A DNA stretch of 64,000 nucleotides from Candidatus Caldarchaeum sp. (GTDB lineage: Archaea > Thermoproteota > Nitrososphaeria_A > Caldarchaeales > Caldarchaeaceae), in assembly GCA_038885755.1 (NCBI GenBank), contig JAVZZH010000003.1, positions 128,432 through 192,431 on the forward strand, in the 5' to 3' direction. The notes under the pieces are model-generated. The model ran no database searches, was not told the origin of the DNA, and saw only the letters and a program-made list of their open reading frames with translations. Shown here in pieces: positions 47,085-51,078 of the stretch (positions are counted from its first letter, which is position 1; every line of letters starts with the position of its first letter). Position numbers and translations under genes: made by a program.

Positions 47085-47162
47085 GCTCCGGTAGTATAGT
47101 CCGGTCAAGTATGGCGGCCTCTCGAGCCGCAGACCCGGGTTCAAATCCCGGCCGGAGCACCA
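47085..47162 (+). tRNA. tRNA-Glu(CTC)
   Basis: GCTCCGG/CCGGAGC acceptor stem, GCGGC-CT-CTC-GA-GCCGC anticodon arm, GGTTCAAATCC, encoded CCA; TTTATTAA box upstream. Confidence 0.97.
47119..47159 (+). repeat. Left att copy (3' half of tRNA-Glu)
   Basis: CTCTCGAGCCGCAGACCCGGGTTCAAATCCCGGCCGGAGCA. Confidence 0.95.
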
Positions 47163-47742
47163 AAAGAAGCCCGATTCGGGGCGGAAAACGAGACGGTCCT
47201 AGAACCGTCCCCGGGGCTGAAAGGTTTGAGCGTAAGGGACTAGGCTGAAGCGTATCGTGTGGCCGAGCGTGTAATTAGGGGCGAGACGGAAGCAGGTATT
47301 GTCTGGAATGCTGAGAAAAAGGAGAAATTCAAGCGGTGGCTCGAGGCTGAGGGTAAGAGCCATGGACTGATATCGTTACCTCAATAGGTATGTTACCACG
47401 GTAAACAGTCCTGAGGACGTCTTGGAGGTTTTCAAGCGTTGTGAAAGGGGTAAGCCGCATTTGGCAAAGGCGTTTAGGGCGCTTCTGAAATACTATGAGA
47501 TTGTAGTCGGTTTCCCTGTGAACCGCCTAGAGCAGCTTAGAAAAGCCATTCCGAAAGTAAGGGCTGGCGTGGACTGCCGCGAGGTGGACGAGAGCGCCGT
47601 GCTTGAAACCTTTAAAACCTTTAAAGGGCTTTCTGGAAAGCTGGAGAAGTACCGCCTGATCTGGCTTCTCATCCTTGACTCAGGCGTCCGGCTTTCCCAC
47701 GCTGTAGAAGCTGTGGAAAACTTCAAGCCTGAAATGCTTTGA
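47160..47742 (+). pseudogene. Int(C) fragment of a tyrosine integrase, decayed and truncated
   Basis: KEKFKRWLE, YLNRY, AKAFRALLKY, LILDSGVRLSHAV (first catalytic Arg); TAG at 47241, frameshift near 47370, no HxxR/Tyr region. Confidence 0.85.
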
Positions 47743-47892
47743 AACTTATCTGAAAAGTGGCATATTAGCATAATAGGATTGAATTGACATTGAATGGGCA
47801 GAAGATTTACAGATGAATTTCAATAAGGGCTTTAACTGTCATTTTGCTTAGTTGTCTTAAACTTATAAACAACTTGTTAGAATTGGTTATTA

Positions 47893-48762
47893 GTGAAGTC
47901 GAAGTCGATGGACGATCAAGAGGTTCAGGCGACGCTTAAGAAAAAGGAAAGGCTGAATGAGCTAGACGGGAAAACATGGGAAAGATATTCCATTAGTATA
48001 TGGGAGATTGTGAAGTCGAGAGAAGAAAGCAAACTTAAGCATCCTGCCATGTTTCCAGTGGAATTATGTCGGAGATTAATTGAAATATATACAAGGAAGG
48101 GCGATGTAGTTCTGGATCCTTTTATGGGTAGCGGCAGCGCAATAATTGCCGCTAGGGATTTGGAACGAAAGGGGATTGGTTTTGACATTAATCCGGATTT
48201 CGTCGAACTTGCGAAGAAGAGACTTTCTCAGCAGAAGCTCATACATCTTGGAGTTGAAGATCCCGATATTTTTTGTGAAGATGCTAAAAACCTTTTGAGG
48301 TATATTAAACCTAACTCTGTTGATTTAGTAATAACTTCTCCTCCATACTGGAATATCCATACAAGGAAAAGAACGGCGGACTACAAAGAGCCAAGACCGT
48401 ATTCTTCCCTAGAAAGAGACCTTGGAAACATTTCAGATTTTAATAGATTCATGGACGAGTTAAAATCCATTTTTGAAAAGGTTCATACAGTTCTGAGAGG
48501 CGGTAAACGATGTATAGTTATTGTGATGGATATTCGCCAAGGCTCCCAGTTTATTCCATTTCATATGAATATAGTCACCATGATGACGGAAATAGGGTTT
48601 ATTCTTGAAGACATAATCATTTGGGACAGGCGAAAAGAATATAGTAATTTGCGACCACTGGGTTATCCATACGTTTTCATAGTGAATAAGATCCATGAGT
48701 ATGTCCTAATATTCAGGAAGAATAGGGTTGAAGAAGTTGAAGACGAAGAAACCCTCGCTTGA
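47893..48762 (+). CDS. Amino-DNA methyltransferase (probably N4-cytosine)
   Basis: HPAMFP, VLDPFMGSGS (motif I) before TSPPYW (motif IV), IIIWD, HEYVLIFRK. Confidence 0.95.
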   Translation: MKSKSMDDQEVQATLKKKERLNELDGKTWERYSISIWEIVKSREESKLKHPAMFPVELCRRLIEIYTRKGDVVLDPFMGSGSAIIAARDLERKGIGFDINPDFVELAKKRLSQQKLIHLGVEDPDIFCEDAKNLLRYIKPNSVDLVITSPPYWNIHTRKRTADYKEPRPYSSLERDLGNISDFNRFMDELKSIFEKVHTVLRGGKRCIVIVMDIRQGSQFIPFHMNIVTMMTEIGFILEDIIIWDRRKEYSNLRPLGYPYVFIVNKIHEYVLIFRKNRVEEVEDEETLA

Positions 48763-49714
48763 CTACATTGATGAGGATGTAGCATATTTTATTGGATTAA
48801 TAACCGCTCGAGGGGAAATATCTGACCAAGGAGGCGTAAAGCGAATTTCCATAGAGTTTCCTTTTAGAAACTTAGAGGTTGAGGGAATAAAAAAGAAGAT
48901 CACCCAGAAAGATAAGATACTATTAAGCTTAGACAATGTTATAAACAGGGTTAATGAACTAGCAGATGTTAACGTCAGAAAAACTGAAAGCGAACGTTCA
49001 ATATACCTAGTTCTTGAAACATTAAAGAACACAATGTTTCTGCGGAACGTGAAGATGCTCATGAAGGGACGAAGTTCCTATTACGAATTTGAAGTCCCAG
49101 ATCAAATTTTCCAGTCAAGCGATTCCATAAAGAAGGAATTCGTTCGAGGATTTGCAGATGTAGCCGGATCCGCGAGGTGGGCAAACAGGAACAGATGGGG
49201 AAAATGCCGAGTTTACTTAGATGTTCTTAATAGTCCCTCTAATTGGCGTTTACCAGTTCAAATGTGCCATCTTTTGCAGGATCATTTGGGAATCCCCATA
49301 GATGTTATACAATGGGGACACCCTAACACTAGAGACCCAAGCCTAAAGGAATACCAAGCTGGAAGAAAAGATGCTTGGGCAAGAGAGCATCAAATAAAAA
49401 TTTTTGCAGATGATTTTGAAAAAATAGGGTTCTACATGTCTCATAAGCAAGAAATACTTGAAGAACTCGCTGAATACAACAGAGAACAAGGGTTTACAAA
49501 GGCAAATTTTTGCAATCCTCCGAAAAGAAGAAAAACTAAGCCAAGACACCCCTCTGAGGCGTCAGAAAAATTGCCTCCAGAAATCCGTGGAAAACATTAC
49601 GATTCCTACTGGCAGATTTGTGCCGATTTAGGCTGCTTTAGATACGCGAACTTTCTTGAAAGCCATAAACAGTTGACAAAATGGGTTAAATCTGAAGAGA
49701 GAGAAAAGAGGTGA
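48728..49714 (+). CDS. LAGLIDADG-fold-like protein lacking catalytic acids; putative RM specificity subunit
   Basis: VAYFIGLITARG and VPDQIF...KKEFVRGFADVAGS resemble two LAGLIDADG blocks; overlaps the MTase. Confidence 0.6.
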   Translation: MKKLKTKKPSLDYIDEDVAYFIGLITARGEISDQGGVKRISIEFPFRNLEVEGIKKKITQKDKILLSLDNVINRVNELADVNVRKTESERSIYLVLETLKNTMFLRNVKMLMKGRSSYYEFEVPDQIFQSSDSIKKEFVRGFADVAGSARWANRNRWGKCRVYLDVLNSPSNWRLPVQMCHLLQDHLGIPIDVIQWGHPNTRDPSLKEYQAGRKDAWAREHQIKIFADDFEKIGFYMSHKQEILEELAEYNREQGFTKANFCNPPKRRKTKPRHPSEASEKLPPEIRGKHYDSYWQICADLGCFRYANFLESHKQLTKWVKSEEREKR

Positions 49715-50217
49715 GCATCGTGTATAAAAATGAGAAAGAAATGTATTCCTATGTGTGTTCATGGTTCAGGAAAATGTTGCAGAGCAAGTTTAAGGATGCC
49801 AAAATATGTGTTGAAGACACTTCTAAAAAGGTTTTGTCAAAATGGCTTCTAGAGAAAGGATTCCATACTTACTTTCCGGATTACCAAACATACGAAGTTG
49901 AGGTTGACGTAACCGGGGTCGTTGTGAAATCGGATAAAGAAGCACATTTAGGGTTTATAGAATGTAAGCTTGGTAGGATCAACCTTAGAGATTTTTCACA
50001 ATTATTAGGGTATAGTAAAGTTGCCATACCCCTCTATTCTATAATACTCTCACCGAAAGGAATCTCCCAATCTCTAAATCTCCTTTTTAACATAGCCAGA
50101 AGAAACGACATACTCTACTATTCAGCGGATAAACACATTTTTATCACTAAATGGCTTGAGCGGAAAAAAGAAATAGACTTTTCAACGATAATCCCTAAGG
50201 GAGCAAGCATTCTATAA
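49711..50217 (+). CDS. Small PD-(D/E)XK-type nuclease
   Basis: NEKEM helix, EVDVTG, FIECK, QLLGY; GTGA overlap with the upstream gene. Confidence 0.7.
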   Translation: MSIVYKNEKEMYSYVCSWFRKMLQSKFKDAKICVEDTSKKVLSKWLLEKGFHTYFPDYQTYEVEVDVTGVVVKSDKEAHLGFIECKLGRINLRDFSQLLGYSKVAIPLYSIILSPKGISQSLNLLFNIARRNDILYYSADKHIFITKWLERKKEIDFSTIIPKGASIL

Positions 50218-50395
50218 AATTGACAGTTTGTCTATTAAGATAAATTTGAGCTTAAAGAACGTTTGGCGTATTATGCTTATGCAAAATTTTCTTTTAACTG
50301 CAACTTTCAGAGGCTTCATAAAATCGGGTGGCGAAAGTTTTTTAGGGCGTGGCGGGGCGGAACTTCGGCTCAAACAGTGCAGCTGGTGGGTATGT

Positions 50396-50560
50396 ATGCC
50401 TAAACAGGGTTATATGTCTGAGACGTTGAAGCGGGAGGTGGCTGAGCTTCTACGCGTCAGGGCTAGGCTTTCAGGCTTAGGCCTGAACGAGTTTCTTTTG
50501 TGTTGTTTGCGGGACGGTTCTCTCGAGTCGCAGACCCGGGTTCAAATCCCGGCCGGAGCA
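50396..50560 (+). pseudogene. Int(N) fragment reading in frame through the att site
   Basis: MPKQGYMSETLKREVAELLRVRARLSGLGLNEFL...SLESQTRVQIPAGA; joins codon 47160 in frame after excision. Confidence 0.75.
50520..50560 (+). repeat. Right att copy (one mismatch, C>T at 50528)
   Basis: CTCTCGAGTCGCAGACCCGGGTTCAAATCCCGGCCGGAGCA. Confidence 0.95.
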
Positions 50561-50569
50561 TGGAATACT

Positions 50570-51078
50570 TATCTGTCTGCTTTTTTCTTTCTTGGGTTTT
50601 TCTCAGGGTTCTGCTGCATTTCGGGTATCTGTCGCCGTTCGGCTTGCTGCTGGTCCTGTTCTCCTCCAGCCATGCTAGTGTCGCCGTCTCCCTAGCCTTC
50701 TCCAGAACCCATCTGAGGTCTTCGGCAAGGTTGTTAAAGATTGTTGGCGGTATGAACCTCCTGAAGTCTGCGAAAGAATCTATTCTCTTCTCAAGGTCTT
50801 ACAATGTCATGAGCTTGGCTATAACCCCTGCGTCGTTGGAGCAGGCTACAGCTCCGGCAGTACCCCGGTCCGCTGACGTTCTTCAACCATCCTCCGCACG
50901 TCGGGCAGAGATTCACCTTCTTCGAGACATGTACTCTATATCCAGCTAGAAGACCGAGGAATATCAGCAGACAGCCTTCAACCCTTTCCTGCTGGACCAG
51001 CGGCAAGCCGAAGTATATCAGCTGCCAAAGGTCAGACCTACTTAAGTCCACCAGCCTTGCGCAGGGCTGGCTAATCAC
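50570..51078 (-). pseudogene. Frameshifted remnant of an unknown Cys-containing protein
   Basis: CPTCGG...CRSC ORF followed by coding-like sequence in another frame. Confidence 0.3.

Follow-up and report, generated by a model that had tools for sequence, protein, structure and literature searches.

A Three-Gene Cassette in an Archaeal Genome

A compact cassette of three genes lies in a 64,000-nucleotide stretch of DNA from the archaeon Candidatus Caldarchaeum sp. (NCBI GenBank assembly GCA_038885755.1, contig JAVZZH010000003.1, positions 128,432 to 192,431 of the forward strand). This whole stretch is called the window, and positions in it are counted from its first letter. Gene 1 encodes a DNA methyltransferase, gene 2 a two-domain protein with the fold of LAGLIDADG homing endonucleases, and gene 3 a small nuclease of the PD-(D/E)XK type (Table 1). 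The trio is the sole cargo of a decayed integrative element of 3.4 kb that sits in a tRNA-Glu gene. It is probably a Type II restriction-modification (RM) system in which a domesticated LAGLIDADG scaffold would serve as the DNA-recognition module.

The open reading frames (ORFs) of genes 1 and 2 overlap by 35 nt and those of genes 2 and 3 by 4 nt, and no internal stop interrupts any of the three. The guanine-cytosine (GC) content falls to 0.37-0.43 over 47500-50500, against 0.51-0.59 on either flank. A first-pass annotation, made from the letters alone, had described three overlapping, intact, AT-rich genes as the only cargo of a decayed element. The ORF list and the GC profile agree with the first part of this description, and the tRNA-Glu gene, the 41-nt repeats, and the integrase remnant agree with the second. 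The strings AYFIGLITARG, EFVRGFADVAG, and E..VD..ECK..Q.LGY, on which that annotation was built, are all present in the translations.

Table 1. Positions of the cassette genes, the features of the element, and selected relatives; positions without an accession or locus label refer to the window.
Feature	Position	Strand	Basis or remark
Gene 1, circularly permuted beta-type N4/N6 DNA methyltransferase, modification subunit	47893..48762	+	289 aa, GTG start; PF01555, PADLOC, 2zie alignment
Gene 2, two-domain LAGLIDADG-fold protein, proposed DNA-recognition subunit	48728..49714	+	328 aa, TTG start; AF2 model, Foldseek, VIA, family alignment
Gene 3, single-domain PD-(D/E)XK nuclease, proposed cleavage subunit	49711..50217	+	168 aa, GTG start; AF2 model, VIA, family alignment
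tRNA-Glu (anticodon CTC), integration target	47085..47162	+	ARAGORN; 3' half is attL
attL, left copy of the 41-nt direct repeat	47119..47159	.	Repeat search; 40/41 identical (98%) to the right copy
Remnant of an archaeal SSV-type integrase gene	47422..47742	+	PF16795; AT-rich spacer after the ORF end
ORF running through attR	50228..50695	+	ORF list and sequence
attR, right repeat copy, end of the 3.4-kb element	50520..50560	.	Repeat search
Cassette on a Lactiplantibacillus plantarum plasmid (L063)	NZ_CP060181.1, 690-4316		L064 is PV036410.1; both restriction genes annotated "hypothetical protein"
Type B loci with degenerate gene 3 paralogue	L026, L028, L029, L031-L037, L039, L041-L051		Example L043:7633-8136
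Giant protein followed by a gene-1-like permuted methylase, no gene 3	L065:736-5226, L066:763-5253		Two metagenome loci

Gene 2 Has a LAGLIDADG Fold without the Canonical Active Site

Genes 2 and 3 belong to large families. Searches at E ≤ 0.001 returned 721 homologues of gene 2 and 184 of gene 3, so the feature is not the product of chance; a second search returned 1217 homologues. The family has no name in the common collections. No Pfam, NCBIfam, or PADLOC family matched gene 2 at E values up to 1, and sequence and profile searches of the PDB yielded nothing below E 0.04.

The nature of the protein is revealed by its predicted structure. The AlphaFold2 (AF2) model, built on 25 homologues, reached a predicted local distance difference test score (pLDDT) of 83.9 and a predicted template modelling score (pTM) of 0.87. 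It displays a helix-strand-strand-helix-strand-strand-helix pattern that occurs twice, with a core at approximately residues 11-258. Foldseek returned 94 PDB matches at E ≤ 0.001, with LAGLIDADG enzymes leading among the matches listed. In the VIA structure comparison, LAGLIDADG proteins make up all 50 matches listed, with Z values of 10.4-16.3. They include the intein endonuclease 2cw7 (Z 16.3), I-Tsp061I (Z 16.0, with 186 residues aligned on a chain of 204), I-DmoI (Z of about 15), and WhiA (Z 13.4-14.9). The two LAGLIDADG-like blocks that had been picked out in the first-pass annotation are thus part of a LAGLIDADG fold.

The canonical LAGLIDADG motif carries an acidic metal-binding residue at its penultimate position (PMC3384342). 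The equivalent positions of gene 2 are R28 and A146, as had been read from the two motif blocks. In an hmmalign alignment of 314 distinct family members, neither position holds a single Asp or Glu. At position 28, a residue is present in 276 rows, of which 145 have R, 122 have K, and 9 have N, G, M, or S. At position 146 there are 309 such rows, with A in 150, T in 130, and another small residue in 29. The canonical LAGLIDADG active site is gone throughout the family. An active homing endonuclease was rejected as an explanation for this reason. Members of the family are always found in a methylase-nuclease cassette, and not in an intron or intein or as free-standing homing genes.

A different set of residues has been preserved in the second domain. 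The signature W-G-H198-P-N200...R-E220-H221-Q222-x-K224, together with R161 and K240, forms a polar cluster that is almost invariant. Among the 314 members, H198 is kept in 311, R161 in 308, K240 in 307, E220 and H221 in 306 each, N200 in 303, and Q222 in 301. Residues that read bases are expected to vary with specificity. The cluster is constant although the methylases beside it, and presumably the target sites, differ, and in this it is unlike a base-reading surface. Judged from its conservation, it could serve to dock the nuclease, have a structural or metal-binding role, or be a relocated active site. Presumably gene 2 is without activity of its own, although the cluster leaves room for an active site that has moved.

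The C-terminal tail of gene 2 (residues 262-303, window positions 49511-49636) contains C262, H274, C298, and C303, which are invariant in the 25 closest homologues. Many distant members have replaced them, and of the 314 proteins in the family only 168 retain C262 and 175 retain C303. These four residues may form a zinc site in part of the family only.

Gene 3 Is a Single-Domain PD-(D/E)XK Nuclease

Family searches were also uninformative for gene 3, with nothing significant in Pfam, NCBIfam, or PADLOC and nothing below E 0.04 in sequence and profile searches of the PDB. Its AF2 model has a pLDDT of 93.5. Foldseek gave no match at E ≤ 0.001 (best 1.3e-3), and a VIA search of 48,161 chains placed PD-(D/E)XK nucleases on top. 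The matches include NucS (Z 8.5), BsaWI (7.8), Can2 (7.4-7.5), the small subunit of R.BspD6I (2p14, 7.3), PaqCI (7.3), NgoMIV (7.2), and FokI (6.7). These Z values are moderate singly, but the list is consistent and the alignments span residues 1-168.

The catalytic residues are conserved almost without exception. Of the 144 family members, 143 have D66 and all have E84, K86, and Q97, which gives the motif D66-X17-E84-x-K86. Fold matches and conservation together uphold the PD-(D/E)XK assignment made in the first reading. That reading had also considered gene 3 too small to carry a recognition domain. Since all 168 residues align inside nuclease cores, there is indeed no room for one, and gene 3 consists of a single nuclease domain. 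Two of its relatives bear automatic names that are evidently wrong.

Genes 2 and 3 Are Inherited Together and Are Fused in Many Genomes

The distribution of the trio was studied in a genome scan with one genome per species, which yielded 52 loci with a gene 2 relative (18 archaeal and 34 bacterial). Profile searches of the ORFs detected a gene-1-like methylase at 44 of these loci, a gene-3-like domain at 47, and the full trio at 42. In most of the ten incomplete loci, the contig ends beside the missing gene, and two (L027 and L030) are visibly degraded. A second, independent collection of 17 metagenome loci came from a scan with an alignment of five giant proteins, described below; gene 3 follows gene 2 in all 15 of its non-giant loci. 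Sequence distances over 38 loci are strongly correlated; genes 2 and 3 give r = 0.94, genes 2 and 1 give r = 0.92, and genes 3 and 1 give r = 0.87. All three correlations exceed those of all 999 permutations, in a set where related loci are not independent of one another. The trio is widespread in both collections, and its members occur in archaea, in bacteria, on plasmids, and in one phage.

The strongest evidence for a joint function is that genes 2 and 3 are naturally fused into one ORF of 535-578 aa at 22 of the 52 loci. Additionally, 22 of 149 cluster representatives, 539-557 aa long, match both the gene 2 and the gene 3 profile. By the Rosetta-stone argument, such fusions indicate that the two separate proteins of the window act as one enzyme.

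The fused form, called type B, differs from the window in several respects. It has a four-cysteine insert in the first LAGLIDADG domain, and its methylase gene is convergent and lies downstream. It is also accompanied by a second gene 3 paralogue of 156-183 aa that stands alone. In this paralogue the catalytic Asp is kept, E-x-K is replaced by N-x-S, and the position of Q97 is taken by Glu. Going by these substitutions, it would be either an inactive partner or a protein with a rearranged active site.

In a third, giant form, proteins of 991-1299 aa (P0280-P0282, P0285, and P0322) end in a C-terminal gene-2-like domain. No Pfam family was found in the N-terminal 700-1000 residues, and the ESM Atlas returned only unnamed clusters for this part (score 0.86). 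A metagenome scan with one giant protein as the query gave no loci. The giant form may be a single-chain version with an uncharacterized effector domain. At two loci (L070:1693-2619 and L074:5117-6046), the methylase is preceded by an additional ORF of 308-309 aa. This ORF is weakly similar to gene 2 (E of about 2e-17 to 5e-17), so that these cassettes would each encode two LAGLIDADG-like proteins.

The Methylase Is the Exchangeable Part of the Cassette

Gene 1 is a member of the N6_N4 methylase family PF01555 (E 5.9e-39) and matches the PADLOC profile MTase_II (E 2.8e-53). Its alignment to the beta-class methylase 2zie falls into two blocks in swapped order, with residues 21-114 on 189-280 and residues 107-251 on 7-143. 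Motifs X-I come first and the SPPY motif IV follows. The swapped blocks explain this order by circular permutation, and the SPPY methyltransferase with motif I ahead of motif IV that had been recognized from the sequence is confirmed by the family match and the alignment.

Many relatives carry more than one methylase. Among the 22 type B loci, 19 have a second enzyme directly next to the gene-1-like one, and contig ends cut the remaining 3. Such a neighbour is also found in 8 type A loci, so two methylases are present in 27 of the 52 loci overall. The second enzyme belongs either to the D12 class or to the gamma class of N6-adenine enzymes, in the latter case with a TaqI_C domain. A single methylase is seen in the window and in 13 other type A loci with visible upstream sequence. 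In a further arrangement, a 700-aa fusion of an EcoRI-type N6-methyladenine (m6A) methylase and a C5-cytosine methylase precedes the gene-2-like and gene-3-like ORFs. Its hosts are two L. plantarum plasmids (6.5 and 8.8 kb) and one Lachnospiraceae phage. In total there are four configurations: the gene 1 type alone, the gene 1 type with a D12 m6A enzyme, the gene 1 type with a gamma m6A enzyme, and the EcoRI-type/C5 fusion. In a Cytophagia genome, the gene-1-like methylase and a D12-class adenine methylase are fused in an ORF of 641 aa (L019:3676-5601).

Genes 2 and 3 are a constant pair while the methylase is exchanged. The first-pass annotation had raised the question of whether the nuclease partner is swapped among relatives. 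The exchange of a partner was found, but on the other side: the nuclease stays with gene 2, and the methylase is what changes.

The number of methylases bears on the target site. Type IIS and IIT systems carry two methylases of different type for asymmetric sites (PMC4081073). The second methylase in most bacterial versions likewise points to an asymmetric target, to judge by analogy with these systems. No D12-type methylase besides gene 1 was found in the genome of the window, which is 86.5% complete. Other methylases exist elsewhere in this genome, and none of them is adjacent to the trio.

The Cassette Is Mobile

The element is bounded by a 41-nt direct repeat whose left copy lies in the tRNA-Glu gene. 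Between the repeats there are the trio, an ORF with an integrase remnant, and a short ORF that runs through attR, and nothing else. Residues 58-105 of the remnant ORF correspond to positions 7-51 of the 161 positions of PF16795 (E 2.1e-5); the score of 24.9 bits lies below the curated cut-off of 27 bits. Just the first third of the catalytic domain is kept. Broken reading frames directly follow attL (47160-47420), and together with the ORF through attR they resemble the two halves of an SSV-type integrase gene. The latter ORF may be the other piece of this gene, and the pieces look like an integrase gene that was split by integration and has decayed since, an impression formed from their position and sequence. 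A terminator-like hairpin lies at 50470-50487.

The cassette itself is mobile. At the nucleotide level, sharing with eight relatives is confined to the cassette (approximately 47746-50240), with 71-93% identity. Gene 2 is present in 2 of 41 related genomes, namely the genome of the window and 1 of 12 others of the genus, and in 0 of 28 further genomes of the order; many of the 41 are incomplete. In five genomes of the same genus that were inspected for an empty site, the tRNA-Glu gene and its upstream gene are located at differing places. The neighbours at other loci include Shedu, HamA, GmrSD, Cap15, SIR2, PIN, MazF, and toxin-antitoxin genes as well as recombinases.

Proposed Mechanism and Alternative Explanations

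We favour the explanation that the trio is a Type II RM system of a IIS/IIT-like kind with a domesticated LAGLIDADG scaffold as its DNA-recognition module, and we give it a probability of roughly 0.6. It agrees with the first-pass reading of a repurposed homing-endonuclease fold, and none of the checks on the fold, on characterized systems, and on co-occurrence spoke against that reading. A methyltransferase and an endonuclease stand side by side and are co-inherited, which is the arrangement that defines Type II RM systems. Gene 1 would methylate the host copies of a short target site and in this way protect them. Gene 2, as a monomeric pseudo-dimeric scaffold, would bind the unmethylated site, provide the specificity, and recruit gene 3 by direct contact in the split form. 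Gene 3, which itself lacks a recognition domain, would cut at the site or next to it and would probably act as a dimer. LAGLIDADG proteins that are monomers with two domains have a natural asymmetry (PMC3017599), and this would suit the asymmetric site suggested by the methylases.

Several points weigh against this explanation. The window has one methylase where 27 of the 52 loci have two, which makes the protection of both strands a difficulty. Homing LAGLIDADG enzymes read long sites, and a restriction enzyme needs a short one. The polar cluster of gene 2 is kept in 301-313 of the 314 members across subfamilies with differing methylases. The type B paralogue is degenerate, and a type B complex would have only one canonical PD-(D/E)XK site. 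Finally, two loci from related Clostridia (L022 and L040) are truly without gene 3. At these loci, a convergent ORF of 291-303 aa with an HNH_2 domain (PF13391) directly follows gene 2 (L022:4633-5544 and L040:535-1410). Its product may have replaced gene 3 as the nuclease partner, or it may be a Type IV enzyme that merely lies nearby and is unrelated to the cassette.

The conserved cluster and the degenerate paralogue speak for an alternative in which gene 2 nicks one strand by means of a relocated active site (H198/N200/E220/H221/Q222/K224) and gene 3 cuts the other strand, in the manner of BtsI and BsrDI. A catalytic role would account for a cluster that persists with different methylase partners. 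In type B, a second catalytic site is needed from elsewhere, and if gene 2 nicks, the degenerate paralogue makes sense as a non-catalytic partner. The strands that bear the cluster are presumably close to the active-site shell of homing enzymes, going by the structure of I-CreI, and this keeps the alternative alive. The anatomy of BtsI is also very similar, with a large ORF of 987 bp, a small ORF of 495 bp, and two amino-methyltransferases (PMC1950550). Against these arguments, the motif of the BtsI and BsrDI large subunits, D-X13-18-E-X12-QR, was found by pattern search in 0 of 313 gene 2 family proteins of 250-600 aa, and profiles from Pfam, NCBIfam, PADLOC, and the PDB detect no known nuclease motif in gene 2. 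The fused form already bears a canonical nuclease domain, and pairing of two complexes, as with FokI, could supply the second cut. We consider nicking by gene 2 possible but unlikely, at about one chance in four.

It is less probable still that genes 2 and 3 are orthologues of a characterized two-subunit enzyme in REBASE, such as BtsI, BsrDI, or BslI, under another name. The 38- and 18-kDa subunits of BtsI match in size (PMC3017599, PMC1950550), an m6A and an N4-methylcytosine (m4C) methylase are paired in BsrDI (PMC1950550), and one family member occurs in a cultured Bacillaceae (L023). Yet every named homologue is a "hypothetical protein", including the RefSeq entries of Calidifontibacillus oryziterrae and L. 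plantarum, and members of four different subfamilies have no support from NCBIfam or from the restriction-enzyme profiles of PADLOC. The single match to such a profile, REase_II (L025), has an E value of 0.036 and no matched stretch. Matches to unrelated families were set aside, namely CARF_PIN in PADLOC (L050) and, in NCBIfam, a HAD hydrolase (L025) and Elf1 (L026), both of them weak. The BtsI gene order (first methylase, small subunit, second methylase, large subunit) is seen in 0 of 69 loci, and the large-subunit motif is absent from the gene 2 family. BslI has Cys4 zinc motifs (PMC4081073), and gene 2 has three to four conserved Cys positions, which many members have lost; C262, C298, C303, and H274 are conserved in part of the family only, and an orthologue of BslI stays improbable but possible. 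The expectation in the first-pass annotation that the trio might match no characterized RM system holds for Pfam, NCBIfam, PADLOC, and the PDB, and gene 2 is set apart from BtsI and BsrDI by the published large-subunit motif.

A role of gene 2 as a WhiA-like regulator of methylase and nuclease expression, comparable to C proteins, with gene 3 as a complete restriction enzyme, is very improbable: WhiA is a transcription factor derived from a LAGLIDADG domain, has an arginine at the first acid position (PMC3384342), and is among the structural matches of gene 2, but the fusion in 22 of 52 loci is unexpected for a regulator and its target enzyme, gene 3 has no recognition domain, Pfam finds no WhiA or helix-turn-helix family on gene 2 at E up to 1, and the giant forms carry the gene 2 domain C-terminally in long proteins that adjoin a methylase.

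Novelty and Significance

The structural repertoire of Type II restriction enzymes is mainly composed of PD-(D/E)XK, HNH, and GIY-YIG enzymes, with the addition of the half-pipe fold (PMC4081073). The word "LAGLIDADG" is absent from this 2014 review and, likewise, from a 2008 fold classification. The folds described as shared by homing and restriction enzymes are only PD-(D/E)XK, GIY-YIG, and beta-beta-alpha-metal, according to a review of proteins related to homing endonucleases (PMC3384342). No paper on a LAGLIDADG-based restriction system was found in the open-access literature. The recognition fold proposed here looks undescribed among restriction systems, and it occurs in a large and widespread family with a modular architecture that is split or fused.

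If the RM system works as proposed, a new fold would be added to the repertoire of restriction enzymes, and gene 2 would be the second domesticated homing endonuclease after WhiA. Evolution would have reached the design of a dead meganuclease joined to a nuclease domain that protein engineers made later. Should the scaffold recognize short sites faithfully, it would also offer a starting point for designed nickases and nucleases. The presence of the family in both domains of life and on small L. plantarum plasmids makes the system directly testable in a harmless host that can be cultivated.

A broader suggestion is more tentative. The gene 2 family might be a new functional class of LAGLIDADG proteins that read short asymmetric sites and serve as a portable recognition module, whose conserved cluster may be a new active site in place of the lost acids. 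The partners of such a module would be of at least three kinds, namely a PD-(D/E)XK subunit encoded separately, a PD-(D/E)XK domain in fusion that is accompanied by an additional paralogue, and the uncharacterized N-terminal region of 700-1000 aa in the giant form. We regard this suggestion as possible but unlikely. Should the cluster be an active site, the enzyme would be the first restriction enzyme with both catalysis and recognition on a LAGLIDADG fold.

Comparison with Known Systems

The closest likeness is with BtsI and BsrDI. The ORFs of gene 2 and gene 3 measure 987 and 507 bp, against 987 and 495 bp in BtsI (PMC1950550). The small subunit of BtsI has the catalytic residues D65, E78, and K80 and is inactive alone (PMC1950550), and gene 3 shares the canonical D...ExK arrangement. 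With its 168 aa, gene 3 corresponds to the description of such small subunits (about 164 aa, PD-Xn-ExK), with a spacing between Asp and Glu of 17 residues compared with 12 in BtsI and 14 in BsrDI (PMC1950550). The pair of m6A and m4C methylases of BsrDI has its counterpart in the two methylases of many relatives, and an asymmetric site would be a further common trait. The large subunits are different. In BtsI and BsrDI, a nuclease domain with the motif PD-Xn-E-X12-QR (D58, E72, and Q85/R86 in BtsI) is followed by a recognition domain, and the subunit nicks DNA alone (PMC1950550), while gene 2 has a LAGLIDADG fold. The system in the window also differs in its single methylase and in its gene order.

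BspD6I and BstNBI resemble the cassette in their small stand-alone nuclease subunit, for which 2p14 is a structural match of gene 3, and the fused-plus-small layout of type B resembles their large-plus-small layout. The large subunit differs in that it has a FokI-like recognition domain (PMC3017599), and there is no sequence match to genes 2 and 3.

WhiA (DUF199) is likewise a monomeric double LAGLIDADG domain in which the acids are lost and an arginine occupies the first position (PMC3384342). In the Thermotoga protein, arginine and glycine are found at the acid positions, and WhiA does not digest DNA (PMC3384342). Unlike WhiA, gene 2 is sporadic and mobile, is always accompanied by a methylase, and in many genomes is part of a fusion with a nuclease. 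With the homing endonucleases I-DmoI and I-Tsp061I and with intein endonucleases, gene 2 shares the fold, the motifs at the interface of two helices, and a monomeric two-domain layout that suits asymmetric DNA. It differs from them in the absence of the catalytic acids, in its location outside introns and inteins, and in its partnership with a methylase and a separate nuclease.

The same principle has been realized by protein engineering. The fusion of an inactive I-SceI with PvuII combines a dead LAGLIDADG binding module with a PD-(D/E)XK cleavage module (PMC3258161). That enzyme is man-made and directed at very long sites, whereas the gene 2 family is natural and, considering the small methylases that accompany it, presumably reads short ones.

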